Shown piece by piece: positions 36,369 to 52,152 of a stretch of DNA of 57,611 nucleotides; within the stretch, counting starts at the first letter, position 1; every line of letters starts with the position of its first letter. Location of the stretch: positions 64,001 to 121,611 of IMG/VR virus record IMGVR_UViG_3300023314_000004. One strand, 5' to 3'. Source of the stretch: a virus. Lineage: Duplodnaviria; Heunggongvirae; Uroviricota; Caudoviricetes. Position numbers and translations under genes: made by a program. The notes under the pieces were generated by a model that had not been told where the DNA came from, searched no databases, and saw only the letters and a program-made list of their open reading frames with translations.

Positions 36369-37385
36369 ATGCCCTGTAAGATAGACTTATGTTCCTATTC
36401 ACCTGTGAAATCTTGTGATGCCTTAGGTATTAACCAAAGGTTTAGCTTGTTATTTGAGGAAGTATGTGCATTAAAAAATACAGGAAATAGTTATATCCTC
36501 CCTATTGCAACATCTTCTATACTTGGAGGAATAAAAGTTGGTACAGGATTAACTATAGATCCTATTACAGGCATACTCTCTACAACTATAGTTCCTACTC
36601 AAGAGTTATTTCAAGCAGATATTACTGTCAGTTTGGCAGGAGGCAAAACATTAGGAAGATATACAAATGGACAAGTAATTGAATCTCAAGGACTTACAGC
36701 AGAAGAAGTAATTAATTTACTAGCTCATGAATACAGCTCCCCTACTTTCTCTTCTTTCCTTATACAAGGACAAGCAACGACAGTGGAGGTAGGGACAGTG
36801 CTAACAACTCCTGCAACATTTGTTTGGGGAATAAATACTAATTCAGGAATTGTAAATACAATAGATATTAAGGATGTTACAGCTGGAACTACACTAGTTT
36901 CTAACACACCAAATGATTTATCACAATCTGTAGCTTTAGGTCCTGTTACATTTACAACAGCAGGAGCTACAAGAATATATAAAGGAACATTGCACGATAC
37001 AGGTACTTCACCATCAGATGTGGATTCTCTTCCATTTACTGTCACTGGTAGATTTTATAGGTTTTGGGGAGCTGTTGCAATAAGACCAGCTAATTCAGCT
37101 GCTGTAAGATCTCTTAATTCTGGATTTCAAGTTCCAGGGAATACTTTTGTTCTTACTACAGGAACAACTCAAAATAAATTTTCTGTAAATCTACCTCCAG
37201 GTGTAACAATAACATCTGTTATAGATACAGGAAACTTAAATGTTAATATAACAAGTGAATATGTCCTTGTAGGAACAGTGATAGTTACAGATGCTGGTGG
37301 TTCTGCCCGTGTGTATAATCAATACGAAATGAATACAGCTGTTCCATATAATTTTTCAACCACTCATTCTATAACCACTTCCTAG
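36369..37385 (+). CDS. Head/tail fibre-type structural protein
   Basis: YILPIATSSILGGIKVGTGLTID fibre repeat motif; Thr/Gly-rich Ig-like beta C-terminus. Confidence 0.6.
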   Translation: MPCKIDLCSYSPVKSCDALGINQRFSLLFEEVCALKNTGNSYILPIATSSILGGIKVGTGLTIDPITGILSTTIVPTQELFQADITVSLAGGKTLGRYTNGQVIESQGLTAEEVINLLAHEYSSPTFSSFLIQGQATTVEVGTVLTTPATFVWGINTNSGIVNTIDIKDVTAGTTLVSNTPNDLSQSVALGPVTFTTAGATRIYKGTLHDTGTSPSDVDSLPFTVTGRFYRFWGAVAIRPANSAAVRSLNSGFQVPGNTFVLTTGTTQNKFSVNLPPGVTITSVIDTGNLNVNITSEYVLVGTVIVTDAGGSARVYNQYEMNTAVPYNFSTTHSITTS

Positions 37386-39290
37386 ATGCCATTTAATATA
37401 CCCTTTGGAATAGGAAGAGTAAATCCAGTTCCTCTACAAAAAGATTATTATAATACTAGTGATACAGTTTATACAGATATTGCTCAAGTAAATAGTCAAA
37501 TACCTCAAGTACTTAGATATGTAGGTCTTACGGTAAATATTGGAACAGATGAATATTGGTATAAGAATGGAGTTACTAACGGAGACTTAATATTAAAACA
37601 ATCCGGAGGAGGTGGAGGTAGTGTAAATTCTGTAACAGGAACCTATGTAAATAACACAGATCCATCTAATCCTGTAGTATTAGCTCAAAATTTACAGGAT
37701 ACTACAGACATAGGAGCAACAACGACTAATCCTATATTTATAAATAGTGATTCTGGTAAAATTGAAATAACTGCTACCACTGATAATTTAAAATCAGCTA
37801 AACTTGGTGTAGATGATAGCAGTGGTTACTTATACTTAAGTGGTCCATTATTACAAAATTCCACTCTTAAAGTTGATAATATTGATGCTTTTACACCAAG
37901 AATTCATCAACTTCCAAATATAGATGGTAATTTAGCTGTTTCAGTTAACGGAACATTTGCAGATACAGCTGGTAATATAACATTAATTATTCCAGATACT
38001 GGTGTGCAATCTGTAACAGGAGATGCTGTTGATAATACAGATCCTCTTAATCCTGTTATTAATTTTCCAAGCAGTACATTAAATTTACAAGAAGTTACTG
38101 ATAATGGAAATACCACTACAAATGATATAACTATAGGTGGAATTTTACAAGTTGGAAGTTACATAAATTCCTTTGGTTTTATAAGAACTACTAGTAGTTT
38201 CTTAGGAGTTGGTCTTACTTTAGCTCCTGCCATTGGCACAGACAACACCTATATTATAAGTGTATGTGATACTTTTAATAATAAATTTGCATTATATGGT
38301 ACACCACAGGGATACACTGGTGGATCAGCTGGATTTGAAAATGGGGCTACTTGGATATTAGACTCAGAGCAAGGACGTGTTAAAACTGATCATTTAATAG
38401 CTAGAACAGATATAACTTTAGTAGCAGGGGCTTCAAATGGTTATGTTCTTACATCAGATGTAAATGGAGTGGGTACATGGCAACCTTCTTCAGGTGGAGG
38501 TGGTACGAACTACTGGACTGCTTCGGGAGATAATATATTTAACAATAATATTGGAAATATTGGAATAAATAATTCAAGTCCTTCTGAAAAATTAGATATA
38601 ATAGGTAGACTTAAAATACAAACTGGAATCGACGATGATGGTTTATATGTAGTTGCTGAAGAAAGTCAAAATGTTAGAATATCCTTAAGTAGAGAAGATG
38701 AAGAAGGAGCTGGTAGAATTATTTTAGTAGATGCTTCAGATCAGGGAACAGTATATTTAAATGCTAAATCGGGTGGTTCTATTGGAATAGGAGCTAATCC
38801 AGATTTAGGTATTAACTTACAAGTAAATGGTAATTTAAGATTTATTACAGGAGCAGAAGGAGCTAATAAAGTATTAACTTCAGATTCAGACGGTAATGCA
38901 GAATGGATGCTACCTTCAGTAAGTGCTGGTGTTCAAACAGTTACAGGAACTCTGGTGGATAACACTGATCCACAAAATCCAATTATTAATGATACAATAC
39001 TATCTAAAAATGTATTTGTAAGTTCAGGTACAAGTCAGGCTTACACGATTCCAGCAGGATTTACACTAGATAAAATAATTGTAGCTCCCCCCTCTAATTG
39101 CAATCCTATTGTTTCCTATACAGCAGGAACTACAGGAGATATAATTCCTCAAGACTTATCCACTCCAGTAACTGCTACAGATGGTATATTATACGTAGTC
39201 AATTTATTAATGCTAACAGCTAAATCTGTCACAGTTTCCTCTATACCTGTAGGAACAACAGTTACATTTATTAAAATGGATATATCATAA
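37386..39290 (+). CDS. Tail fibre protein with internal repeats
   Basis: Three V(N/Q)(S/T)VTG..V(N/D)NTDP.NP repeats, two LQ(D/E)(T/V)TD.G.TTTN repeats, two VLTSD..G...W repeats, IGIG.N-type fibre motifs. Confidence 0.7.
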
Positions 39291-40873
39291 TGAAAAAATT
39301 ACTTACCATATTGTCGTTATTTATCTGTATTGGAGTTAAATCTCAAACAATATCAGGAGATAAAGGCTATTTTAGAGGTTCTGTACAGTTAAAAACTGTA
39401 CCTGTAACAGATTTTCAAACAGACACCACTTTAAGATTAAATTCAAAACTTCCCACTTCTAAAGCAGTGTGGGATTTTGTAACAGGTAGAACAATAATGC
39501 TTACAGCTGATGCTCCATTATTTTGGAACGGCAATCAAATTAAAATAGATAGTAATACAACTAAAGGATATACAACAAGATTTCAAACACAAAAATCTAT
39601 TGACAGCCTATCTGCTTTGAAATTTTCAGTAGTTGGAGGCACTCTTACAGGAACAGCAGGATCTGGATTTTTAGGTTTACCTGTACAAAGCTCCATTCCT
39701 TCTTCTCCTTCTTCTGGATTGAGGATATATTCTGATGCTGTTGGAAGGCTATCATGGATTAATACATTAGGTTTTTCAAGGACAATAGCATCATATGGAT
39801 TAACCGGCAACAGAATATATCGTGTATATGATAGGGATTATACTTTTGCTGATAGTGCTGATGTGGATAGGCGTTGGTCTTTAATTGGTAATTCTGTAGC
39901 ATACACCGAATTTATTGGATCTACTAATCTTCGACCTTTAAGATTCAGAACTAATAACATTCAAGGCATGGTGCTTGACAGTTTGCAGCGTCTTGGTATT
40001 GGCACTGACACTGTAAATTCTAAACTGAATGTCGTAACAAATGGAATTGGAGCTACTGCTACTAATTCTGCGGGCTTAATTTTAGAAAATAAAGCTACAT
40101 CATCTGTTGGAGCAGTTCAATATTCTCCACCACTAGTAATGTTGGGAACTGGATGGAATACAACAACAGGAGCTTCTTATATTGGAGGATATAGAATGAT
40201 GGCTACTCCAGTGAGCACAATAGGAACGGGAATACCAACAACAGGTTTAGTAATTCAGCAAACTACAGATGGGACGACATGGGCTAATATTGGAACAATT
40301 AATATTATAAGTGGTGTCCCCACTTTTACAATGGGAAGTAATGTATTTGGAAATGCTAGTGTAGCAGGAATTTCTTACACTGCACCTGCTTTAATTGCGA
40401 CTCAGACATTAACGGTTTCTGGTGGTAATACATTCTCGACAGGAACAAATACGAGTGAAACTTTTACAATAAGAAAAAATACCACTAATACAGGTGGTAC
40501 AAATACATCATCAAGTTTATTAATCAACCCCACTTACAATAACTCTGGAGGTACAAACACAGTTTATGGTATTAGATATGCTCCGTCATTATCTAATTTA
40601 ACAGGAACTACGCATAGAGCAATTTTAACAGAATCTGGAACTGTTCTATTTGGTACTGTATCAGGTCAAGTCGGTATTGGTGTCAATTTAACTCCTGCTG
40701 CTTCAGCTATAGTGGACATCACTTCTACTACACAAGGATTTTTACCACCTAGAATGACGCAAGCTCAGAGAAATGCAATATCTTCTCCAGCTGAAGGACT
40801 TATGATTTATCAGACAGATGGTACAAAAGGTTGGTACGGGTATGATGGTTCTTCTTGGGTTATATTAAATTAA
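39290..40873 (+). CDS. Fibre-like protein with Sec signal peptide
   Basis: N-terminus [18 protein letters not shown]|Q; C-terminal [37 protein letters not shown]...YDGSSW motif of Bacteroidota trimeric fibre-like proteins. Confidence 0.7.
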
Positions 40874-40879
40874 TTTATC

Positions 40880-41680
40880 ATGATAGAGATTCTTTGGCTC
40901 ATTCTAAAAGTTTTGATTTTATTATCAATAGCTCTTGTTTATACAAATAATTGTAAAGGTCAAATGCTTAGTGCTCCAGGTAATTATAATCCTTATAATA
41001 TAGGAACTACATATGGAGCAAGAGATACTGCTTGGATTAAATTTGGCAGTGACAGCTTATTTGGTAGAAACATGGAGACAGGAGTTATGGAATTTAAAGG
41101 AATTGCAAATCCTGTAAGAAGAACACCTATTGATGTAATTATAGGATTTCCTTCTTATTTAAAAGATTCTACGATACTTGGACCATTATTCACTCAATCT
41201 AATGTAGTGAAACAATATAAAAACGGGTATAATAAAAATGCTACATTATTAACAGATAGTGTTAATGAAGGAAATAATTTATATTTTACAAATTCCAGAG
41301 CAAGAACAGCAATTTCCTTAACAAATACGTCAGGAGCAGTTAGTTATAATTCCTCTACAGGTGTTATAAATATACCTACAGCTAACGACTATACAAATAC
41401 TGTTAACACTGTTGGAGATAGTGCAGTATTTTATCTTACTTCAGATAAGACATTATCAGGAACAGCTTTATTTACTACCACTCCATATATAAATCCCGTA
41501 GTTAATAATGTAAATGGTAATTACACTTTTGGGTGGACACTCTCAGCTGATAAAAAGACATTAGTGGTTAAAAGCAGAGTGGCAACTAACACAGCCGTTA
41601 TAGCTCTTTTAGGAATTTCTGTTTTAGGTAGCACACAACCTGTTACAACAGGAACTCCAATACAAATATTTGCAAAATAA
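40880..41680 (+). CDS. Signal-peptide/membrane-anchored structural-like protein
   Basis: Hydrophobic N-terminus ending CKG|Q; TDSVNEGNNLYFTNSRARTAIS motif as in phage fibre proteins. Confidence 0.55.
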   Translation: MIEILWLILKVLILLSIALVYTNNCKGQMLSAPGNYNPYNIGTTYGARDTAWIKFGSDSLFGRNMETGVMEFKGIANPVRRTPIDVIIGFPSYLKDSTILGPLFTQSNVVKQYKNGYNKNATLLTDSVNEGNNLYFTNSRARTAISLTNTSGAVSYNSSTGVINIPTANDYTNTVNTVGDSAVFYLTSDKTLSGTALFTTTPYINPVVNNVNGNYTFGWTLSADKKTLVVKSRVATNTAVIALLGISVLGSTQPVTTGTPIQIFAK

Positions 41681-42993
41681 TGGCTGAAATAACTTTACAA
41701 GCTACTACAGAAGATATAATTATATCATCAACTATCATGGTTGAAGCTGGCCAAACATTAGTGTTTGGTAAAAATCAAGTGGTAAAATTTGAGAATGGTG
41801 GTAAAATAATGGGCAATGGTAGACTATTAGGAGGAATTATTTCTGCTCCTTTAACCAGACAAATATTTGGAGAAAATGTTATTGTAGATTTTGAAAACAC
41901 ATTTGATACAGCAACAAGTCTTGGCTGGTTTGTTACTCCAGGTAGTGTAGATAATTATAAAGGGATTAACAATGCAATACAAACTATTTTAAGAAATAGC
42001 AATAGATTAAGATATTTATTTGTCCCTAAAGGAGTGTATACACATAGTCAGCCTATAAAAATATGTGATTTAAATGATGCTGAAACAGCATATAATCAAG
42101 TGACAATAAAAATATGTGGGGAAACTAGCTATTGGGACAGCTCACAAGGATCTATATTTAATTATACAGGGTTAGATCAATTTGCTCTAGGAATTCAAGT
42201 TGGTAAGGGTGTAGAGATTGCTCATTTACAGTTCAATGGTAAATATATATCTCCGGATATTTCTAACCCAACTAAACTTTTATCAGTATATAAGACAACT
42301 CCAGCTACTTATGACAATCTGTCAAATAAAACTACAGGTGATTATGCAGCTATAAAGATTGATTTTGATGAATTTAAAACAAGAAGTGGTTCTACAGGAC
42401 TTCACATTCATGATATAATCATTTATAATTTTTCGACAGGAATAGCTCTCAGTCAAAATTATAGAACTCAAAACGACGAAATAAATTTATTTGAAAGAAT
42501 ACAGTTTAAAAATGTTAAGATGGGCGTTTTAACAGGACAGGCTCAAGAAAAACTAAATATTTTTAGAGGTTTGTATAGTTGGGGTCAAATGCATACATTA
42601 TTTTCTGCTGGTAAAACAGGAGCTAAACAATGTGGTTTCTACAAAATAGAGGATGTTAATATAGCAGGAAATTGCATAAGATTATTTGACATAGATCAGG
42701 GTGGTTGGTTCCCAATATGTATTACTAATGTTTATGCAGAAAATATATATTGTATAGGAAATCTTTGGTCAACTATAGGACTTAACCTAACTTTGACACA
42801 ATCAGTGATACAACTAAGAAAAAAATCAGAAGTAGGAGAGAGAGAAATTGTGTATGCTGCCGGTTTAAATGTTGAAATGTCTTATTTAAATTTAAGATAC
42901 TATGATGATTTAAACACCAATATTGAGGTTAAATTAAGGAGTGGTGCTTCTTTTGTAAAATCTTATATTCCAAATCCACTAAAATATAATTAA
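41680..42993 (+). CDS. Tailspike-like right-handed beta-helix (pectate-lyase-like) protein, putative depolymerase
   Basis: DNYKGINNAI...LFVPKGVY..SQPIKI motif typical of Pectate_lyase_3-like N-termini, followed by I/V-rich beta-helix repeats; no signal peptide. Confidence 0.6.
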   Translation: MAEITLQATTEDIIISSTIMVEAGQTLVFGKNQVVKFENGGKIMGNGRLLGGIISAPLTRQIFGENVIVDFENTFDTATSLGWFVTPGSVDNYKGINNAIQTILRNSNRLRYLFVPKGVYTHSQPIKICDLNDAETAYNQVTIKICGETSYWDSSQGSIFNYTGLDQFALGIQVGKGVEIAHLQFNGKYISPDISNPTKLLSVYKTTPATYDNLSNKTTGDYAAIKIDFDEFKTRSGSTGLHIHDIIIYNFSTGIALSQNYRTQNDEINLFERIQFKNVKMGVLTGQAQEKLNIFRGLYSWGQMHTLFSAGKTGAKQCGFYKIEDVNIAGNCIRLFDIDQGGWFPICITNVYAENIYCIGNLWSTIGLNLTLTQSVIQLRKKSEVGEREIVYAAGLNVEMSYLNLRYYDDLNTNIEVKLRSGASFVKSYIPNPLKYN

Positions 42994-42995
42994 AA

Positions 42996-43220
42996 ATGCC
43001 AGCAGTAGAAACAATTATCAAAATTAAAGTAGGAGCACCTATTAGGTACACAACTACAGATCCAATTGTGATTAATTATGTCACTGGATCAGGTACATCT
43101 ACTAATATTAATGATGCCTATGTTTATCCAAGTTTAGCTTTAGCTGAAGCAGCGATTGTTGCAACAGGAGAAGATCTTGAAACAGGTAGACTAGGAACAA
43201 GACCTAGACCTCATGCTTAA
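42996..43220 (+). CDS. Small hypothetical structural protein (74 aa)
   Basis: In-operon ORF with A-rich leader, stop overlapping the next gene. Confidence 0.55.
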   Translation: MPAVETIIKIKVGAPIRYTTTDPIVINYVTGSGTSTNINDAYVYPSLALAEAAIVATGEDLETGRLGTRPRPHA

Positions 43221-43695
43221 AAGAATTAATAACATGACCCTAGCCTTAATTGGGGTCATGTTCTTTGAATTTCCTTCTTTATTATTTGATGTTATTAATC
43301 AATTAGGTTTTGAAGATTTCATAATTAAAAAAGCTAGTTGGATTTTAAATGAATTAACAGGTAAAGTAGAGAAAGGTGTAGATTACACATTTTCTTTATT
43401 ATTATCTAATATTGGAGAAAATATAAGAGATTTAGCTTTCACTTACATACTACTTAGACTTTCTACTAGTAAAAACTGGCGTAGATTTTGGCTTTGCTAT
43501 ATAGATTTTATAATGGTTAATTTTGTATTTGATATTTTAACAAATCCATATGAATTTCACCAAGAAAAACTAATAAACGCTCTAATAGCTGTTATTATAC
43601 ATATAATACTTTATAAATATAAAAATGAAAAAGATATTAACTACTTTATTGATCCTATTGATATTAGGAACGACACAGGCTCAGACAGCAGGTAA
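43213..43695 (+). CDS. Hypothetical multi-pass membrane protein
   Basis: Three to four hydrophobic segments; overlaps the next gene by 71 nt. Confidence 0.55.
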   Translation: MLKRINNMTLALIGVMFFEFPSLLFDVINQLGFEDFIIKKASWILNELTGKVEKGVDYTFSLLLSNIGENIRDLAFTYILLRLSTSKNWRRFWLCYIDFIMVNFVFDILTNPYEFHQEKLINALIAVIIHIILYKYKNEKDINYFIDPIDIRNDTGSDSR

Positions 43696-44839
43696 GCAAT
43701 TTGCTTGGAATTTTGTAAAGTTTAAAAATCAATGGACTACAGGCTATACTTGGGGACTACTATATCTACCTAAAAGTTTCTACAGTGATACAACTAAAAA
43801 ATATCCAACAATAGTTTTTTCACATGGTTTAGGTCATCAAGCAAATCCAACTACACAACTAACAGCAGAAACTCTTTTACCTAAGAATGGGTTGCCTCAG
43901 TTAATTAAAGATGGCACTGTCACACCTGTTTATATTGATCCTGGAGATGGGAAAGAATATGAATTTATTGTTGTCTCTTTAGAGGGAGATTTTGGTGCTC
44001 CTTTAGCAGCTTTCTCCGAATTTGCTGTAAATAACGATAGCCTCATATCTAAAAGAATAGATAGAAATGCTTTATACTTAACAGGATTATCAGCTGGTGG
44101 TGGTGAAGTATTTAATTGGGTGTTGACATCAAAGGCTTTTGCTAAAGAAGTAGCAGCTATTGTTCCAATGTCTTCTGTTTATTGGGCCACTGCTTTAGAA
44201 AATAACTTTGCATATCCTAATGATGATAGTGTTAAAGTTTGGGCATTTCACGGACCAAATGATGCAACTACATCTTATGCAGCTAGTAAAACATTTACAG
44301 ATAAAGTGAAAGGTTCTCGTCTTACACCACTTCCAGTGTCCCATAGTAATTGGAACTCTATTTATAATGGTCTATACAAGGAGAATTTTGTAGTAAATGG
44401 TGTTACAAAAAGTCTTAATATATATGAGTGGATGCTTTGGAATAGAAAAAATCGACCTGTTGCTGTTAATAAAGTGCCTACAGTGAGAAGTTTTAAGACT
44501 CAATATACATTTCCTTCTACATCTATTTCTACCACTATAGACGCTACTGATAGTGATGGTGTGATAAAGACATATCAATGGATTAAACCTAAAACAGGTG
44601 TAACAGGTGTTAAGGATAGTACAGCTAAAACTACAGAAATATCAGCTATGGTTCCAGGGGAATATTCTTTTAATATAGTTGTAACAGACGATAAAGGGGC
44701 TAAAGGTTATGGTGTTATTACATTAATAGTGTTAGAAGAACCTACAGTACAGCTTGGAGAATTTAATTTTAATGGATGTGTATTTAAGTTTTATGGCAAG
44801 AAATCTTCTCCTAAAACTGGTACTTATATTATACAATAA
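43625..44839 (+). CDS. Secreted alpha/beta-hydrolase (esterase-like) with C-terminal PKD-like domain
   Basis: Signal peptide MKKILTTLLILLILGTTQA|Q; oxyanion FSHGLG, nucleophile elbow GLSAGG (44084-44101), WAFHGPND (Asp), SHSNW (His); PKD-like DSDGVI..YQW...PGEYSF..VVTDDKGA. Confidence 0.8.
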   Translation: MKKILTTLLILLILGTTQAQTAGKQFAWNFVKFKNQWTTGYTWGLLYLPKSFYSDTTKKYPTIVFSHGLGHQANPTTQLTAETLLPKNGLPQLIKDGTVTPVYIDPGDGKEYEFIVVSLEGDFGAPLAAFSEFAVNNDSLISKRIDRNALYLTGLSAGGGEVFNWVLTSKAFAKEVAAIVPMSSVYWATALENNFAYPNDDSVKVWAFHGPNDATTSYAASKTFTDKVKGSRLTPLPVSHSNWNSIYNGLYKENFVVNGVTKSLNIYEWMLWNRKNRPVAVNKVPTVRSFKTQYTFPSTSISTTIDATDSDGVIKTYQWIKPKTGVTGVKDSTAKTTEISAMVPGEYSFNIVVTDDKGAKGYGVITLIVLEEPTVQLGEFNFNGCVFKFYGKKSSPKTGTYIIQ

Positions 44840-46743
44840 TGAAATACATATTAACTATATTATTGGCCTCTATCTGCTTATTTACAAAAGCTCAGGCTCC
44901 TCCTATGAATGATGTATTTGTAGGAGAATACCAAAATAGTTTTAAAAGTATATTTGATCGTGTTTACATGACTGCAAATACAGGTGGAATTATTTCTTTA
45001 GAGGATTGCGGACTTAGTGGAATCACTTACGGTGGTGGTGGCCAATATCATAACATTGCAGGTAAGGGATCTACCAAGCAAATCTGGGATTTACGTAGGA
45101 ACACTGCTCAAAATAAGGTGATTACTAAGATTACTAATTTAGATGGTACAGATTTCTTATGTGATAGTGCAATTGGATTTTTCCAGTCTAACTTATATAT
45201 TAAAAATGGAGAAATTTGGTACAGTTCCAATTCTGTAAACGTAGATGGTCGTGACCCTTTAAATCAAAATGGAGGTGTGGATAATCGTTATCCTTATCCG
45301 TTAATACAACCACCTGGTAGCAGAACTGTTATAGATGTTGTAGCAGGAGCAAATACACCGCCTTCAGGAGCTATAGCAATAGTAAGATGTTCTGATAATA
45401 CATTATGGCAGTATGATAGAACTAGAACAACTCCTATTCAACTATCTTACTCTGGTACTTTATTGAAAGTAACACAAGTGGGATATTTTGCAACAGTGAT
45501 TGAAACTACTACAGATTTATTAGCTAGAGGTTATTTTGCTTCTTATGTAGGAGGAACTAACCTTACTCAGAATGGACCTTTCACATCTATAAAAGCTAAA
45601 TATGTAGCAGCAGGGGTTAAATTTCCATTAATTGAACTAAAAGGTGGTTATCATACAATGGGTATGATTGATGCTCTTAATAACCAATATTGGATGGGTA
45701 GTAATGTCAATGGTGAATTTGGTAATGGCTTAGAATACAATCCTTATAGAACAAGACCTACTTTTCCTTGGCTTTGGAATTTTGCTAATGGTGAACTAGT
45801 AGCTACTGCTCCTGTTTATATTCCAGGTAAAATACAACACTTATATCTCACTCCAAATATTGCTTTCTACTCATTCGTAATGGATATGGGAGGTAAATTA
45901 TACTCTAAAGGACGTAATAAAAACTATTCTCTTGCTAATGGTGAAGCTTTAGTAATTGGTAATGGAACAGATGCTGGTGGTGGTCAAGATAAATTTCCTA
46001 ATGGTTTAGATCAACCTTTTGATGGAGAAATCAATCTAAATGCTAGGTATGTATTAAGAGTGTTTAACCCTTCAGTTCAACAAGCTCCAAGAGCTTCTGC
46101 TGGTATAGATCAATACATTACAACAGATACTTCAAGACTTTGGGGACAGGGTAGTAGTAAACAAGAAGGTACAATTACCTCAAGATTTTGGACTCAGCTT
46201 TCAGGACCAAACACTGTATCAATAGCAACAGCAGCTATAGCAAACACTCCTATATCTGGATTAGTTGCCGGTACTTATACATTTGAAGAAAGGGTAACAG
46301 ATCAAAATGGTGTAATAGATAGAGATACAGTTTCTGTAACAACAACATTTACACCTCCTACAACACCAGATATTACAAACACTTATTCAGCTTTTGTATA
46401 CAGCTATATACAAGGAAATGGCCCTTCTTTACAATCTAACACTTTTAGTATTTTAGGTAGTAGCCTATCTCCTACTTCAGGAAATATCATTGTTACACCT
46501 TCTACAAATTTTGAAGTTTATGATGGATCTACATGGCAATCTAGTGCTTTTAATATAGCTTATACTGGAGGAACTATTTCTACATCTAGTATATACAGAA
46601 TTAGATTAAAAGCAGGACTAACAGCAAATACTTACTCGGAAAATATTACAATCAACGGAGGTGGAGCATCTTCAACTATTCCTGTAACAGGTTCAGTATT
46701 ATCTGCTCCTACAGGTCCTAGTTGTATATGTACTACCAATTAG
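44839..46743 (+). CDS. Secreted RCC1-like beta-propeller protein with PKD-like and Ig-like domains
   Basis: Signal peptide MKYILTILLASICLFTKA|Q; RCC1-like repeats (YWMGSNVNGEFGNG, LYSKGRNKNYSLANG); PKD-like ASAGIDQ...WTQLSGP...GLVAGTYTF..VTD; C-terminal Ig-like domain. Confidence 0.7.
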   Translation: MKYILTILLASICLFTKAQAPPMNDVFVGEYQNSFKSIFDRVYMTANTGGIISLEDCGLSGITYGGGGQYHNIAGKGSTKQIWDLRRNTAQNKVITKITNLDGTDFLCDSAIGFFQSNLYIKNGEIWYSSNSVNVDGRDPLNQNGGVDNRYPYPLIQPPGSRTVIDVVAGANTPPSGAIAIVRCSDNTLWQYDRTRTTPIQLSYSGTLLKVTQVGYFATVIETTTDLLARGYFASYVGGTNLTQNGPFTSIKAKYVAAGVKFPLIELKGGYHTMGMIDALNNQYWMGSNVNGEFGNGLEYNPYRTRPTFPWLWNFANGELVATAPVYIPGKIQHLYLTPNIAFYSFVMDMGGKLYSKGRNKNYSLANGEALVIGNGTDAGGGQDKFPNGLDQPFDGEINLNARYVLRVFNPSVQQAPRASAGIDQYITTDTSRLWGQGSSKQEGTITSRFWTQLSGPNTVSIATAAIANTPISGLVAGTYTFEERVTDQNGVIDRDTVSVTTTFTPPTTPDITNTYSAFVYSYIQGNGPSLQSNTFSILGSSLSPTSGNIIVTPSTNFEVYDGSTWQSSAFNIAYTGGTISTSSIYRIRLKAGLTANTYSENITINGGGASSTIPVTGSVLSAPTGPSCICTTN

Positions 46744-46754
46744 AAAGGACATGA

Positions 46755-47087
46755 ATGAAAAATCTCAAATGGTTTCAATGGCTTTTGTCTCTAGACAAAG
46801 ACAAATTGGTATTGGTTTTGTTGTTTATAGGAATGAGTTATTTATATTTCAATCTTAAATCTTCACAAACCGAGAACAATGGTTTAAAAGATGAAAAATA
46901 TAAATATGCTCTTACCCAATTGAGAGCTTGTGACAGTATTAATGCTATTCTTAAAGCAGAAAATATTCAATTTTACAAAGATCAGATTAAAAGATTAGAA
47001 GAAAATCTTTCTAAAATAGATACAGCTATCAGGGTTAATAAAACTGTAATCCAAGATAACATGAAACTATTAAAGAAATTGAAATGA
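46755..47087 (+). CDS. Membrane protein with coiled coil (holin- or spanin-like)
   Basis: One N-terminal TM helix (LVLVLLFIGMSYLYF) followed by a coiled coil. Confidence 0.45.
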   Translation: MKNLKWFQWLLSLDKDKLVLVLLFIGMSYLYFNLKSSQTENNGLKDEKYKYALTQLRACDSINAILKAENIQFYKDQIKRLEENLSKIDTAIRVNKTVIQDNMKLLKKLK

Positions 47088-47296
47088 AATTAAGATCAGT
47101 AACCGTAGCAGCATTTTTATATTTATTAATATGGCCTCCATCCGTAGGTGATACTCAACCTATTGTCCATCATGAGCTAACGTATAAAGAAAAAATAGAT
47201 TCGTTAGAATCAGAAAAAAATAATAAATTGCAACTCCTAAATACACAAGAGGAAACAATTAAAATATTTAATAAGTTATGGAAAGAAAGAAAATAA
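47084..47296 (+). CDS. Small exported/membrane coiled-coil protein
   Basis: Hydrophobic N-terminus VTVAAFLYLLIWPP; ATGA-coupled to the upstream gene. Confidence 0.5.
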   Translation: MKLRSVTVAAFLYLLIWPPSVGDTQPIVHHELTYKEKIDSLESEKNNKLQLLNTQEETIKIFNKLWKERK

Positions 47297-48036
47297 TTGG
47301 GGGAGCTGTTATAGCAGTGTTAATATTAGTTATTATACTTACTCAAACTTGTAAAAAACCTAAAAATGATGTTATAGAGGATATATCTGTTCCTATTTCT
47401 CAAAATACAGAACAACTATATATTAATGATAGCTTAAAAGCTGTCAAACAATCAATACTCTTAGCTGAAAGTAAGCAAACTATAAATAACTTACAAGACA
47501 GTATTGAAAAAATAGTTTCAGCTTATGCTCAAATAAAACCTACAACAGTTATTAGGTATGTAGAAAATTCTACATATAAAGATAAAGTGGGGCAATATCA
47601 GGACAGCCTATCTACTCTCATTGATACACTTATTTCTCTTAAAAATCAGAATGTAGAGTATACAAAATATATAAATTCTAAAACAATTCCTTACGTTATA
47701 TCAGATAAGTGGTTTACACAAAAAGGTTCATTTGATCTTAAAGGAAGTATTAAAATAGATTCTCTTAAAATAATTAGTGAGCCTTATGTGATACTAGGGG
47801 AAAAAGGTAAATGGTATCAAAGGAAAACCATTACAGCCTTAGTAGGTAATAAAAATCCTAATATAGTGCAAAATAATTTACAATCTTTCACATATAAACC
47901 AAAAACTCCTGTCCAATTCTCTGGAGGTCCAGTTATATTAACTAATGGAACTCAAACCAGTGTTGGAGCAGGAATAACAATTAAAAAAGGCTTACTAAGC
48001 TTAACAGTAGGTTATCAACTTAAAAATTTAAACTAA
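47278..48036 (+). CDS. Putative spanin-like envelope protein
   Basis: TM or lipoprotein-like N-terminus (IILTQTC-KKPK), periplasmic-type coiled coil, amphipathic C-terminal beta strands ending LTVGYQLKNLN. Confidence 0.5.
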   Translation: MERKKIIGGAVIAVLILVIILTQTCKKPKNDVIEDISVPISQNTEQLYINDSLKAVKQSILLAESKQTINNLQDSIEKIVSAYAQIKPTTVIRYVENSTYKDKVGQYQDSLSTLIDTLISLKNQNVEYTKYINSKTIPYVISDKWFTQKGSFDLKGSIKIDSLKIISEPYVILGEKGKWYQRKTITALVGNKNPNIVQNNLQSFTYKPKTPVQFSGGPVILTNGTQTSVGAGITIKKGLLSLTVGYQLKNLN

Positions 48037-48371
48037 TGTCAACATTTCAACCAATCAATGTATTTGACTTTTTAAAAGAATTTGTGACAAGACTTGGGAA
48101 AAAGAATCCTAAATTCTTCACTATCCTAAGCTACATTCTTACAGCTGCTGGTTTGATCACTGGTATTCCTGCTTTCTTGGAATATACAGGTGTAGTTCTT
48201 CCTGAAGCTTTACAAGTATTATCTAGTAAAGTAGTTGCTTACGCTGCTGCTGTAGGTGTGTTTTTAACTAATCTTACAGTGGACGATGCTACAGAAGTAG
48301 CAGCTGCTGAACCAGAAAAACTTCCTGTTACAGCTAAAGCTGAGAATAACAAAGTAGTAGAAGGTAAATAA
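48036..48371 (+). CDS. Putative holin
   Basis: 111 aa, two TM helices after a basic GKKNPKFF segment, charged C-terminal tail. Confidence 0.5.
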   Translation: MSTFQPINVFDFLKEFVTRLGKKNPKFFTILSYILTAAGLITGIPAFLEYTGVVLPEALQVLSSKVVAYAAAVGVFLTNLTVDDATEVAAAEPEKLPVTAKAENNKVVEGK

Positions 48372-49126
48372 TGGAAGTAGGACTTATTACATGTTATATA
48401 GGAAGAAGTAGGTATATTAAACGTATACTTGCTTCTTTTCTAGCTCAAGATTATGAAGGTCATATTACCTTACTACTTTATCACAATGGTTGTGCAACAC
48501 ATGAGCTAGGAAAATTTGATATTCCGAACAATAGAAAAATAATTCTCATTAATAATTGCAAGGATTTAACTACAAATAATAGTTACACTAGTACAGGAGC
48601 TATATTTAGAGATGCATTATCCCTATTACCTAAAGTGGATGTTGTAAATTTCTTTGATAGTGATGATTTGTTTCTTCCTAACCACGTATCTGAGGGAGTG
48701 AAGGGTTATTTAGAAGGAGGAAAATTGGCTTATAAGCCTAAATATTCCTATCATACATATTTAGATAGTTTTTCTTTAGAGGAGAACAATATGGAACCTT
48801 CTGTATTTGTTAGTTATGATCATCTAAAATTTATGGGATTTGCAGAAGTAAGTGCTTCCTATCACCAAAAATGGCTCACTCCTTTACAGACAAGTAAAAC
48901 TATCTACGATAAAGAAGATGGAATTCCTACTTTTCTATACGATTGGACTAGAGGACATAACACTTATAAAATATCTGGTGCAGGAGATGATTCAGAAATA
49001 AACTTTCAAAATCATAGAAATTGGGAATCTTCTATTATAGAAGAAACAATACTAACACCTATTTCTGGAGAGGAACTAAATAAAGAATATGAGAAAATTA
49101 GAGATAATATCTTGTGTAACAAATGA
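48371..49126 (+). CDS. GT-A fold glycosyltransferase (GT2-like)
   Basis: LITCY.GR...LASFLAQDY N-terminus and VNFFDSDD DxD motif. Confidence 0.75.
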   Translation: MEVGLITCYIGRSRYIKRILASFLAQDYEGHITLLLYHNGCATHELGKFDIPNNRKIILINNCKDLTTNNSYTSTGAIFRDALSLLPKVDVVNFFDSDDLFLPNHVSEGVKGYLEGGKLAYKPKYSYHTYLDSFSLEENNMEPSVFVSYDHLKFMGFAEVSASYHQKWLTPLQTSKTIYDKEDGIPTFLYDWTRGHNTYKISGAGDDSEINFQNHRNWESSIIEETILTPISGEELNKEYEKIRDNILCNK

Positions 49127-50150
49127 GAAGAGATATTGGTGGGAAACTAAAGTGTTACTTAATAATCTCACTTCTCTAGGATATACAAGTATTCACATCC
49201 TCCTATTCGTTAGAAAAGGACAAGAAGTTCTTCCTGAATGGAAAGAAATAGCAGATAAACACAATCTATTTATCTTAGAAGATAACAAAGACATATACAG
49301 AATATCTCAAGCTTTTCAATACACTCCTTTATACAGGTTTTATCTCCTACAGGAGTATTTTAAAATTCATCCTGAACTAAGTGATGAAGCTATATTTTAT
49401 GTCGATACTGACATTATATTAGATAAATATATAGATTTCACACCCTTCCTTCAAGATGATATTAACTATCTGTCTTGGACAGGAAATGAAGATAGATCTG
49501 ATAATTATCTCTGGCAGCCTTATTTTGATTCTAAGCTTAATCAAGTAGATCCTCTGAAGATAGAGCAATATAAAAAACTAGATATATTAGAACGTCTAGG
49601 TTTTATGTGTGGCACATCGAGAGATGTAATTACAAGGAATAATAGCAATACTGGAGGGGCACAATATCTCCTTAAAAACATCACTTCCCAATTTTGGACA
49701 GATTGTTTTAATAATTGTTGTGAAATAAAAACCTATCTCACTTCTATAAACCAAATCTTCATGAAAGGAGATAGTTATATAGAGAAGGAAAATAATGGTT
49801 TCCAGTCTTTTTGTTCGGATATGTGGGCTGTATTTTACAATTTATTGGCTAAAAACATGCCAGTAAAATGTCCGAAAGAATTTGATTTTGCTTGGAGTAG
49901 TGATCCAATATCTAGATTAGATACATGTTCTATTGTACATAATGCAGGTGTATCCTTAGAAGAGAAAATAAAAGTTCCTTATAAAAATGAATATTTAGAT
50001 ATTCCACTTTTCTATAAAGGAAAATATGTAGAATACACTCCATTTGATGATATGGAGAATTTAATTACAATTTATCAACACCCAATAGCTAAAAACTATT
50101 GTAATAACAAATATATACACGAAATAATTAAAACCCAAATAAATGGCTAA
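49089..50150 (+). CDS. GT-A fold glycosyltransferase-like protein (second GT)
   Basis: IFYVDTDIIL DxD motif, GGAQYLLK, SDMWA, IVHNAG motifs. Confidence 0.6.
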   Translation: MRKLEIISCVTNEKRYWWETKVLLNNLTSLGYTSIHILLFVRKGQEVLPEWKEIADKHNLFILEDNKDIYRISQAFQYTPLYRFYLLQEYFKIHPELSDEAIFYVDTDIILDKYIDFTPFLQDDINYLSWTGNEDRSDNYLWQPYFDSKLNQVDPLKIEQYKKLDILERLGFMCGTSRDVITRNNSNTGGAQYLLKNITSQFWTDCFNNCCEIKTYLTSINQIFMKGDSYIEKENNGFQSFCSDMWAVFYNLLAKNMPVKCPKEFDFAWSSDPISRLDTCSIVHNAGVSLEEKIKVPYKNEYLDIPLFYKGKYVEYTPFDDMENLITIYQHPIAKNYCNNKYIHEIIKTQING

Positions 50151-50544
50151 TCAATTGTATAGTTTTACTAGGTTAGATTCTTCAGGCAGAGTAGTTGCAG
50201 GATCAACAGTAGTACGTAAAAAAATGCCTAAGACAGGCAGATGGAGACAAGATTTATCAGAAGTTTGCTGTCAAGCCCCTCTGACATCCTTATTAACTGG
50301 TAGTGTCACTTTAAACTCTTCTGATGTTACATTCACACTATTTTGTGATGGTGTAGCTGTTGCTGTATTGGCTTCTGGTCAAGCAGGAACTACATTAGCT
50401 AGTGAAATAACTATAGCAAATAACAAGTTCTCTGCTTATGGGGAGTTTACAGCTAATGGTACTGTTCAAGCTGATTTACGTCTTAAAGACGATATTGCTG
50501 ATGGTTTATGTCCAGGAGGAGTTGTCACTTTTACAATTAGCTAA
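50143..50544 (+). CDS. Conserved-type small structural protein
   Basis: RLDSSGRVVAGS.V.RKKMPKTGRW...CC N-terminus resembles a motif I recall from Bacteroidota phage structural regions; beta-rich C-terminus. Confidence 0.5.
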   Translation: MANQLYSFTRLDSSGRVVAGSTVVRKKMPKTGRWRQDLSEVCCQAPLTSLLTGSVTLNSSDVTFTLFCDGVAVAVLASGQAGTTLASEITIANNKFSAYGEFTANGTVQADLRLKDDIADGLCPGGVVTFTIS

Positions 50545-51393: not shown

Positions 51394-51421
51394 AAAGGGA
51401 GATGTAAAGTCTCCCTTTTTT
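51394..51421. terminator. Bidirectional Rho-independent terminator at the junction of the two arms
   Basis: AAAGGGAGA (51394-51402)/TCTCCCTTT (51410-51418) stem, T-run downstream and A-rich run upstream, between convergent genes. Confidence 0.8.
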
Positions 51422-51422
51422 A

Positions 51423-51896
51423 TTAGAAATTTGGATATATAATATTCATAAGTTTTATAAAATCCTCTAAACTTTTTAAAGAATTTTCATAATCTGTATA
51501 GGTTATATTAACATAAGGTTTACTAAAAAATACATGAGTTGATAATGGTAATAAGTTTAAAATAATATTATATTTTGTGTCTTCTTTTCCATTAACAATT
51601 GTTCCCCCTAAGTTAATTAATGCTAGATTATCATTAAAAATATATTTGTTAATATAAACAATGCTATCTCCTGTTTCTTTACTATAAATACTTGAAGTGA
51701 GGAATGTTTCTCCCTTAGCAACAGGCATAAAATTCATAGTGTAACATCTATTCTCCTCCCAATTTTGGTAAATATTTCCAAATCTATCAGCTATAACTAT
51801 CTTATTGCCTTGATTAGGCTTTATATATAAACTATCCTTACATATTTGAGCTTTTGCTATATTAAATAGAAGCAGTAGTGTCAGTAATTTTTTCAT
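51423..51896 (-). CDS. Exported hypothetical protein
   Basis: Better start at 51896 than the track's 51929: MKKLLTLLLLFNIAKA|Q signal peptide. Confidence 0.6.
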   Translation of the reverse strand: MKKLLTLLLLFNIAKAQICKDSLYIKPNQGNKIVIADRFGNIYQNWEENRCYTMNFMPVAKGETFLTSSIYSKETGDSIVYINKYIFNDNLALINLGGTIVNGKEDTKYNIILNLLPLSTHVFFSKPYVNITYTDYENSLKSLEDFIKLMNIIYPNF

Positions 51897-52152
51897 CTTT
51901 AATCTTTTGAAATACATAAAAATAAGCATTTACAGCAGGTATACCATACTTTTTATAAGCTTTTTTAACTCTTCTGGCGTGATTAACCTTATGAGTGACA
52001 ATTTCACCAATTCTCCATTTCTGCTCTTCTTCATTCCACTTAGGTCTGTCATATTTCTCTAAAGCATAATATTCTCTTACAGGCAGCTTCTTGGCTGCTT
52101 TTTTAATTGCTCTAATAATGTGCTTTGGCTTTTTAATTTCTTTTTTCTTCAT
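51862..52152 (-). CDS. Basic hypothetical protein (96 aa)
   Basis: Lys/Arg-rich ORF in the coupled - strand operon. Confidence 0.6.
   Translation of the reverse strand: MKKKEIKKPKHIIRAIKKAAKKLPVREYYALEKYDRPKWNEEEQKWRIGEIVTHKVNHARRVKKAYKKYGIPAVNAYFYVFQKIKDEKITDTTASI

Follow-up and report, generated by a model that had tools for sequence, protein, structure and literature searches.

Tailed-phage particles and their fibres are classically assembled in the cytoplasm. In Bacteroidota, exported substrates of signal peptidase I (SPase I) follow the Q-rule, i.e. Gln is found at position +1 of the cleavage site (Bochtler 2018, PMC5837995; PMC10653852). Prophages of Porphyromonas gingivalis contain five genes for predicted SPase I substrates that have Gln at +1, and this was read as phage use of host secretion (Matrishin et al. 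2023, PMC10367356). Here we describe four genes with leaders of this type in IMG/VR record IMGVR_UViG_3300023314_000004, an uncultured crAss-like phage of Bacteroidota of 122 kb. The stretch analysed, termed the window, has 57,611 nucleotides (nt) and represents the last 57.6 kb of one 121,611-bp contig of ~31% GC. Genes are named by the window position at which they start. The four genes (39290, 40880, 43625 and 44839) lie between positions 39290 and 46743, in the host-recognition region, and their proteins are very probably exported and processed. In the literature we found no description of signal peptides on tail-fibre or tailspike-type proteins.

Comparable genes are present in two cultured Cellulophaga phages. 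In the podovirus phi18:3 (NC_021794.1), the gp085–gp087 proteins start with MK, a hydrophobic stretch and SQ or AQ, and their genes immediately precede the lysis genes. The record lists the three products as structural or tail proteins, “based on experimental MS/MS proteomics analysis” (MS/MS, tandem mass spectrometry). In the siphovirus phi10:1 (NC_021802.1), all five of the proteins gp091–gp095 display leaders of this kind; over the eight proteins of both phages the pattern is MK, a hydrophobic stretch and (A/S/G)Q. Their genes are located after the tape-measure and distal-tail genes, with holin-like genes next; they include two pectate lyases and one “tail fiber protein”, and four of the five (not gp095) are supported by MS/MS. 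The sequences of gp093 of phi10:1 (L120) and gp086 of phi18:3 (L118) show an identity of 83% over the first 118 residues, signal peptide included, and the pairs gp092/gp085 and gp094/gp087 are likewise related. Leader-bearing proteins are thus common to a siphovirus and a podovirus of one host, and the leader-bearing cassette seems to be transferred as a whole between phages that differ in their tails. The crAss-like Cellulophaga phage phi14:2 shows no leaders on its fibre cluster g080–g086. The Cellulophaga phage records reportedly stem from Holmfeldt et al. 2013 (PNAS), and our literature search found no discussion of the leaders on these proteins.

The four genes of the window are as follows (aa, amino acids; T9SS, type IX secretion system; the arrow marks the predicted cleavage site):

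39290..40873, + strand: leader-bearing fibre-like protein, 527 aa, comprising a Sec leader (VKS↓Q), a variable central part and PTL_trimer (PF26696) at the C-terminus; from the domain on an identical database protein, the Atlas and an alignment

40880..41680, + strand: leader-bearing fibre-like protein, 266 aa, with a leader (CKG↓Q), an NLYFT..RAR fibre repeat (~100–165) and a probable tailspike-type C-terminal beta-sandwich (~167–266); from homologues and a structural model

43625..44839, + strand: leader-bearing alpha/beta-hydrolase esterase, 404 aa, with TQA↓Q, a PKD domain and no T9SS tail; from homologues, PF22352 and a conserved triad

44839..46743, + strand: leader-bearing predicted RCC1-like beta-propeller, 634 aa, with TKA↓Q, the propeller at ~20–420, a PKD domain at 421–501, C-terminal ~130 residues without a match and no T9SS tail; from the Atlas and Pfam

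Export leaders and O-glycosylation motifs

Leaders were called with a heuristic of our own, together with N-termini read by eye. The 39290 sequence starts with MKK, followed by a 13-residue hydrophobic region (h-region) and VKS↓Q. The 43625 sequence displays MKK, an h-region and TQA↓Q, and that of 44839 displays MK, an h-region and TKA↓Q. In these three textbook leaders the apolar stretch is 13–14 residues long. All four proteins, including 40880, whose leader is atypical, show an n/h/c architecture, follow the small-residue rule at positions -3/-1 and have Gln at +1. The first-pass annotation of this DNA had reported signal-peptide-like N-termini with Gln after the cleavage site for these genes, and they can be read from the translations of all four. 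Across the 121.6-kb genome, SPase I/Gln-like leaders are found with this heuristic in ~7 of ~165 open reading frames, and four of these are among nine tightly packed genes (hypergeometric P ~1e-4).

The database gene model of 43625 has a chain length of 393 aa. This fits a TTG start at codon 12, which would cut the leader, and the choice of this start may serve to avoid a 71-nt overlap with 43213. Here the ATG at position 43625 is taken as the start, since only that ATG yields a complete canonical leader.

Leaders are also found on related proteins. Among 51 database proteins in which PTL_trimer is C-terminal, 18 have a leader; canonical leaders are present in eight of the 47 distinct complete IMG/VR proteins with this arrangement that were read. 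In the 40880 family, ~33 of 46 short members open with a +1 Gln leader by our own reading, two more have lipoboxes (e.g. P0364, P0367) and ~5 have a different, leaderless N-terminus. Close homologues of 40880 likewise open with hydrophobic leaders ending in AQ. All five IMG/VR loci read that encode the 40880-type domain start with hydrophobic leader-like N-termini, one of them (L081) having no clear SPase I site.

Bacteroidota O-glycosylation is a periplasmic process (review PMC12871550), and its motif was taken from PMC8550257. The sequon, D(S/T)(A/I/L/V/M/T), was counted and compared with composition-preserving shuffles. The four leader proteins together have 16 sequons (6.2 expected), and none of 5000 shuffles reaches 16. 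The individual counts are five for 39290 (2.2 expected), five for 40880 (0.85 expected) and four for 43625 (1.3 expected). In the leaderless neighbours the counts are close to those expected: 1 versus 1.3 in 36369, 4 versus 3.8 in 37386, and at expectation in 41680. Over all 18,463 leaderless residues of the late region, outside the leader and lysis-cassette proteins, 58 sequons were counted versus 59.0 expected. The richest proteins of the window are the exported lysis-cassette proteins 46755, 47084 and 47278, with 8 sequons versus 1.0 expected.

The contrast between leader-bearing and leaderless proteins repeats in both fibre families. Leader-bearing PTL fibres of IMG/VR have 60 sequons (21.6 expected) and leaderless ones 107 (122 expected). 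In the 40880 family the leader-bearing members show 108 (54 expected) and the leaderless members 15 (17.5 expected). Three of the four leader proteins of the window are probably O-glycosylated in the periplasm.

A different reading of the hydrophobic N-termini is that they are not export signals; the proteins would enter classical tail assembly in the cytoplasm, and the N-terminal helix would serve assembly or anchoring or be removed by a phage protease. This agrees with the classical cytoplasmic assembly of tailed-phage fibres and with the atypical leader of 40880. In addition, predicted leaders on P. gingivalis phage capsid proteins have been treated as prohead-protease substrates (PMC10367356). 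However, all leaders but that of 40880 are textbook SPase I substrates and show the Gln at +1 that is specific to the phylum; in the 40880 family this Gln is kept over dozens of diverged members. Enrichment of the periplasm-specific glycosylation motif is seen solely in the leader-bearing members of two families, and the esterase and the propeller have secreted proteins as their cellular homologues. We regard a non-functional leader as very improbable. The canonical leaders, their conservation in two fibre-module families and the sequon enrichment confined to leader-bearing proteins argue for export by host Sec/SPase I, and for the esterase and the propeller the secretion of their cellular relatives adds further support. 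Export of a fibre-like trimer, an esterase and a propeller, as the first-pass annotation had proposed, is in agreement with these data.

None of the four leaders fits a lipobox with Cys at +1, as in receptor-blocking superinfection-exclusion lipoproteins of the T5 Llp/phi80 Cor type. A T9SS C-terminal sorting domain (PF18962/TIGR04183, or type B TIGR04131) was not found in any of the four proteins (Pfam E ≤ 0.01, NCBIfam E ≤ 0.1). Disulfide-dependent folding was considered as a reason for export and ruled out, as mature 39290 and 40880 have no Cys.

Additional small genes with Sec or lipoprotein leaders, e.g. MKKLLTLLLLFNIAKA↓Q, are present at window positions 51423–51929 (- strand) and at genome positions 41370–41708, 36452–36646 and 39174–39380 (- strand, outside the window). 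The phage thus appears to encode several further exported proteins beyond the fibre region.

Relationships of the four proteins

Scans of the block proteins with Pfam, PHROGs and NCBIfam matched PKD domains only. When the block and its single genes were searched by blastn and tblastn against 50,697 deposited phages, 40880, 43625 and 44839 gave no match, and the match of 39290 was restricted to its PTL_trimer end.

PF26696 is described in Pfam as a “phage tail like trimerisation region”. It is precomputed for a database protein identical to 39290 (P0136), and the Atlas names the same domain; the scan with the local Pfam copy did not report this family. An alignment of 39290 shows 14 invariant columns, every one within residues 479–523 (the last ~50), and the AI..P..GL motif is present. 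PTL_trimer is encoded on >500 IMG/VR viral contigs.

The 40880 sequence has 926 cluster representatives at E ≤ 1e-3 in a library of 1.8 billion proteins. In an AlphaFold (AF2) model built from a 56-row alignment, residues ~171–266 have block-mean confidence (pLDDT) values of mostly 96–98. Among the 11 best VIA-align rows, nine come from phages or pyocins and represent tailspikes, fibres or receptor-binding proteins, mostly matched in their C-terminal domains, with Z 5.8–8.1. These are Pam1, AP22 gp53, LKA1 gp49, phi297, phiAB6, K1 lyase, R2 pyocin, K64-1 S2-4 and the Oekolampad receptor-binding protein (RBP). With Foldseek every E-value is >1e-3. The model is suggestive of a resemblance between the C-terminal domain of 40880 and tailspike or fibre tip domains, the Z range supporting a common fold only. 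Pattern scans of 185,579 species genomes showed no relative of this domain, within the limits of the patterns used; the family therefore looks viral, and its assignment as a cellular family was dropped.

The 39290 and 40880 proteins appear to be mosaics of phage tail-fibre modules of the receptor-binder type. The description of all four proteins as host-like in the first-pass annotation does not apply to these two, which carry PTL_trimer and a fibre repeat with a tailspike-type domain, respectively; it does apply to 43625 and 44839, which have Bacteroidota homologues. An all-versus-all blastp of the late proteins showed no domain common to leaderless and leader-bearing proteins, and a decoy of the phage's own fibre tip was thus rejected. 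The sole exception noted in this comparison is a weak PKD match of 43625 with 44839.

Trimeric fibre-like proteins with leaders could also be displayed on the surface or on outer-membrane vesicles as adhesins, in the manner of Bdellovibrio MAT trimers, and alter host adhesion or vesicle targeting. Exported adhesins of this kind are known in bacteria (PMC10769870). Long contigs that are presumably chromosomal, several of them with a Bacteroidota label, also encode proteins with a leader and PTL_trimer, beside Fib_succ, DUF1566 and YadA-head domains. However, no route across the outer membrane can be recognised in the four proteins, which have neither lipobox nor T9SS tail, and the viral appearance of the 40880 C-terminal domain in the species-genome scans speaks against a cellular adhesin. 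We consider surface display at least as improbable as a non-functional leader.

The 43625 sequence has 666 homologues, the best with ~30% identity, and homologues at E 1e-41 carry Pfam domains of the Abhydrolase_2/PHB-depolymerase esterase type. Homologues with a name or taxon label are mostly Bacteroidota esterases (Chitinophagaceae, Sphingobacteriaceae), many of them with PKD domains and T9SS tails (PF18962). The PKD domain of 43625 itself is PF22352 (E = 1e-9). Its catalytic part gave no Pfam match at E ≤ 0.01, and the PHB-esterase models of NCBIfam gave 18–19 bits versus cut-offs of 108–150. A match with PDB 3DOH has an E-value of 1e-3. Since the homologues at E 1e-41 carry the Pfam domains mentioned, and in view of the 3DOH match, 43625 is placed in the alpha/beta-hydrolase superfamily. 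Residues invariant in the alignment are H67-G68 (the HG motif), G154-x-S156-x-G158, D213 and H240. The protein is thus an active-looking esterase by its sequence, with an intact Ser-Asp-His triad (S156/D213/H240).

The Atlas structural matches of 44839 are ten RCC1-family clusters with TM 0.68–0.71. Heading the list (TM 0.69) is an RCC1 protein of Bacteroidota that has a T9SS tail. The PKD domain has an E-value of 5e-13, and Pfam WD40_RLD gives an E-value of 0.005, with a score that falls far short of the family cut-off. A single-sequence AlphaFold model has a pLDDT of 32. Homologues found by sequence match chiefly the PKD region, and many of the cellular ones carry PF18962. With a conserved triad in the one and RCC1-like models at TM ~0.69 for the other, the earlier calls of an esterase and a propeller are supported.

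Judged from their sequences, 43625 and 44839 appear to be copies of host secreted glycan-acting or glycan-binding proteins minus the T9SS tail. Because the tail has been lost, they should remain periplasmic until lysis.

Gene order and related phages

All genes of the block are on the + strand, in a run that extends from the giant proteins of the virion module (1376–2994 aa) to a strong bidirectional terminator at 51394–51418. Distant relatives of a 1578-aa virion protein are found in Leptolyngbya phage Lbo-JY46 (33%), in Cellulophaga phages phi4:1/phi17:2 (29%) and in a crAss-type gut phage. The open reading frames of the first-pass annotation were confirmed at their stated positions, all on the + strand. 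Their tight coupling, also noted at that stage, can be seen at the junctions, which are 1-nt overlaps or gaps of 2–11 nt (39290/39290, 40873–40880, 41680/41680, 42993–42996, 43213/43220, 44839/44839 and 46743–46755). The sole exception is the 71-nt overlap of 43213–43695 with 43625–44839. The neighbouring features are:

36369..37385, + strand: fibre without a leader, Cys-rich at its N-terminus and conserved as the first fibre gene behind the giant virion proteins; from its translation

37386..39290, + strand: leaderless fibre-like protein, 634 aa, with repeated fibre motifs and an N-terminus that is not hydrophobic

41680..42993, + strand: leaderless protein, 437 aa, no family match

42996..43220, + strand: small open reading frame, 74 aa; from its translation and Pfam and PHROGs scans

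43213..43695, + strand: predicted membrane protein, 160 aa, with 3–4 hydrophobic spans; from its translation

46755..48371, + strand: lysis-type cassette bounding the block, with 46755 (transmembrane/coiled-coil), 47084 (small hydrophobic), 47278 (lipoprotein-like, LTQTC) and 48036 (holin-like); by our own reading

The N-terminus of 36369 is matched by a 217-aa protein of a related phage (L108), and Cys-rich starts like it also open giant fibres in most relatives. The N-terminal 121 aa of 37386 show 31% identity to a 632-aa protein of another relative (L102). The 41680 sequence has no match in Pfam, PHROGs, NCBIfam or PDB sequences. Both 37386 and 41680, interleaved with the leader-bearing genes and earlier called signal-less fibre or tailspike genes, are indeed leaderless. 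The first is fibre-like; the tailspike identity of 41680 was not confirmed by a family or PDB-sequence match.

The 43213 frame was earlier called a membrane protein, and the hydrophobic spans of its translation agree with this. By our own estimate an open frame of 160 codons at 31% GC is very unlikely to occur by chance. Within this frame are a 13-bp hairpin at 43231–43262, directly 3′ of the 42996 stop codon, and a Bacteroidota-type promoter-like match (TTTG..TAATTTTG) at 43493–43525, ~100 nt 5′ of the esterase gene. The esterase–propeller pair might have its own transcription start here. As a candidate, the internal promoter was not retained: it is a single match, and the motif count of the window is not significant (6 versus 2.8 expected).

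Relatives were taken to be the 30 IMG/VR phages that encode a homologue of the preceding 2133-aa protein (25 at 39–48% identity and five at 26–28%). They were examined across 5–10 kb downstream of this homologue (~0.6–4 kb in a few short loci). This region shows fibres with Cys-rich N-termini, often giants of 2000–3300 aa, and then a lysis cassette. In relatives L088–L117, single giant leaderless fibre genes of 1766 to >3200 aa are seen, with the Cys-rich N-terminus MN.TCS..PCP.... Stop-codon recoding in the relatives was ruled out. The stretches poor in open reading frames are giant fibre genes running past the end of the locus, and low-complexity repeats give spurious overlapping frames.

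Within the downstream DNA examined, the block is absent in all 30 relatives. Neither the esterase nor the propeller was found in them, and of these proteins the PKD module alone gives matches, in leaderless proteins. Except for a lysis-cassette protein of ~156 aa, the relatives have no leader-bearing open reading frame of at least 150 aa. PTL_trimer, the LYFT repeat and PKD are seen in them solely as modules within leaderless fibres. Because it is absent from the relatives, the block appears to be a lineage-specific insert in a hypervariable host-recognition region, between conserved leaderless fibres and lysis genes. The first-pass annotation had proposed a single co-adapted system and had named conservation of the cluster in related phages as one of the checks. 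The cluster is not conserved in the 30 phages, and by that measure it has not co-evolved as one. Its four genes are of different origin and their modules occur singly elsewhere.

Directly 3′ of the block, 46755, 47084 and 47278 are also membrane or exported proteins. N-terminal look-alikes of 47278 (a transmembrane segment ending in ..QRSC or ..RGC) were seen by eye beside endolysin-like genes in relatives such as L092, L094 and L110; BLAST gave no match between 47278 and these look-alikes. The 47278 protein (47278–48036) may be a glycosylated spanin-like component; its two companions are encoded at 46755–47087 and 47084–47296. Homologues of one or more of 48371, 49089, 50143 and 50544 are present in ~8 of the 30 relative loci, among those with enough downstream DNA. 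The genes 48371–50544 are thus kept in relatives while the upstream fibre block is not. They gave no Pfam match at E ≤ 0.01, and an earlier label of 48371 as a GT-A glycosyltransferase could not be confirmed.

Proposed route and comparison with known systems

The four late proteins may be made as preproteins and exported via host Sec. SPase I would cut before Gln, and a host cyclase would turn this Gln into pyroglutamate. The proteins would then fold in the periplasm, where pyroglutamate and glycans would stabilise them; such stabilisation has been demonstrated for host proteins (PMC10653852). With no T9SS tail, the esterase and the propeller would be held in the periplasm until lysis. Lysis would bring the periplasmic proteins together with cytoplasmically built particles and with the cell surface. 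Most likely 39290 and 40880 would become accessory fibres of the virion, by analogy with the leader-bearing proteins of phi10:1 and phi18:3, for which attachment to the particle seems to be the case. The esterase and the propeller would act on surface glycans, virion-bound or free. Decoration of virions at lysis had been suggested in the first-pass annotation, and it receives indirect support from the leader-bearing fibre and lyase proteins of these two phages that are annotated as detected by MS/MS, a support by analogy only. We give slightly better than even weight to this reading as a whole, i.e. host-recognition or glycan-acting proteins that are exported, mature in the periplasm and come into contact with particle or cell surface on lysis, with the fibre pair joining the virion.

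Several points weigh against it. The leader of 40880 has its first basic residue at K10, which interrupts a longer hydrophobic stretch, and its site is CKG↓Q. The 44839 sequence has two sequons versus 2.0 expected, i.e. no enrichment, unlike the other three leader proteins. Cleavage, pyroglutamate and glycans of the four proteins are features that we infer from their sequences. Mass spectrometry of purified virions can pick up co-purifying envelope proteins, and we know of no mechanism for joining a fibre from the periplasm to a tail. The Cellulophaga proteins show no sequence similarity to the window proteins (blastp at E ≤ 1, no meaningful match), and the relation to these MS-listed proteins is therefore one of analogy only; those of phi18:3 (gp085–087) are not sequon-enriched (3 versus 9.8 expected). 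The window also encodes the leaderless fibres 36369 and 37386, and the 30 relatives have no large leader-bearing protein. As the relatives manage without such proteins, the four may be dispensable accessories and not virion parts.

In another explanation, the four proteins are exported and accumulate in the periplasm but do not enter the virion and are freed at lysis. The esterase would edit acetyl or acyl groups on surface glycans, and the fibre-type and propeller proteins would bind receptors on debris or on neighbouring cells. Progeny would be spared re-adsorption, superinfection blocked or neighbours primed, by a receptor-destroying or receptor-masking logic. The evidence for export is identical in both explanations, and the esterase triad is intact. 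The relatives without the block are presumably infective, the phage owns separate leaderless fibres, and the block adjoins the lysis cassette. Q-rule secreted proteins of P. gingivalis prophages have earlier been suggested as possible envelope modifiers (PMC10367356). However, having neither lipobox nor T9SS tail, the proteins have no way to the outer surface until the cell lyses. No tip domain is common to them and the leaderless fibres of the phage, which gives no support to a decoy of its own receptor binder, and free binders would mask receptors on the next hosts too. For two cultured phages, the records name comparable leader-bearing proteins as virion proteins. Release as free factors is the main alternative, though a rather unlikely one, and the preferred reading remains that of proteins matured in the periplasm, the fibre pair joining the particle.

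Unrelated viral contigs (L030, L048, L062, L081–L085) show a similar arrangement. Leader-bearing fibre genes are last in the tail module, small membrane-protein genes follow, and in several loci endolysin-like genes come next. Two to three leader-bearing fibre genes are often consecutive (L048, L062, L084), and some of the leader-bearing genes match tail-spike or “virion structural protein” PHROGs or tail fibres of cultured phages. On an unrelated 53-kb viral contig (L084:5703–10294), three consecutive leader-bearing proteins are encoded just 5′ of an endolysin-like gene: 226 aa with a PTL_trimer-like end, 1046 aa and tailspike-like, and 263 aa with the 40880-type C-terminal domain. The pairing of modules is that of 39290 and 40880.

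It is conceivable, and we put it forward as a doubtful generalisation, that many Bacteroidota tailed phages, the present one among them, finish their host-recognition gear (fibres, tailspike-type binders and receptor-modifying enzymes) in the periplasm (Sec, pyroglutamate, O-glycans) and add it to otherwise complete particles only at lysis, a two-compartment assembly. If so, the annotation rule that a signal peptide marks a non-structural protein fails for such phages. Host-range prediction for Bacteroidota phages would be affected (gut Bacteroides, fish-pathogen Flavobacterium, crAss-like phages), engineered recombinant fibres would need export and possibly glycosylation, and models of lysis and particle maturation would change. 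The window indicates that leader-bearing modules move between unrelated phages and can be combined with captured host secreted enzymes minus the T9SS tail. What is particular here is a cassette absent from 30 relatives, of two mobile fibre modules and two captured host proteins minus T9SS tails, beside leaderless fibres.

Five groups of known proteins can be compared with the block. The Q-rule proteins of P. gingivalis prophages (PMC10367356) are likewise products of Bacteroidota phage genes with predicted SPase I +1 Gln leaders, but they are function-unknown genes of temperate phages and are not described as tail-fibre-type or virion-module proteins. Bdellovibrio MAT fibres (Caulton et al. 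2024, PMC10769870) are modular trimeric adhesins that resemble phage fibres and, as proposed for the fibre pair, are exported and work beyond the cytoplasm; unlike the fibre pair, they are cellular proteins of a predatory bacterium on its own surface, and not part of a phage virion module.

The tailspikes of Pam1 (7EEA), AP22 (gp53, 4MTM) and LKA1 (gp49, 4RU4) have C-terminal domains that superpose on that of 40880 with Z 6.5–8.1, which indicates a common fold only. Such tailspikes and fibres, which have receptor-modifying enzyme domains and lectin-like C-terminal domains, also pair an enzyme with a binder for surface glycans. To our knowledge, tailspikes and fibres of the Pam1, AP22 and LKA1 type have no signal peptides and are assembled in the cytoplasm.

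Among cellular proteins, the T9SS-secreted PKD esterases of Bacteroidota share ~30% identity, the catalytic residues, the PKD domain and the Sec leader with 43625, and Bacteroidota RCC1-propeller proteins share the RCC1 fold, PKD and the Sec leader with 44839. The phage copies differ in having no T9SS sorting domain and in their location in a phage late operon.

The cassettes of Cellulophaga phi10:1 and phi18:3 differ from the block in having pectate lyase where esterase, RCC1 and PTL_trimer are found here. The gp091–095 proteins of phi10:1 have few sequons and appear to be its sole distal tail proteins, whereas the window phage has leaderless fibres as well. Seven of the eight leader-bearing Cellulophaga proteins are annotated as structural by virion MS/MS. 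The likeness is in the arrangement: three to five consecutive leader-bearing proteins with +1 Gln, encoded at the end of the tail module before holin or endolysin genes, and the combination of fibre-type proteins with glycan-cleaving enzymes.

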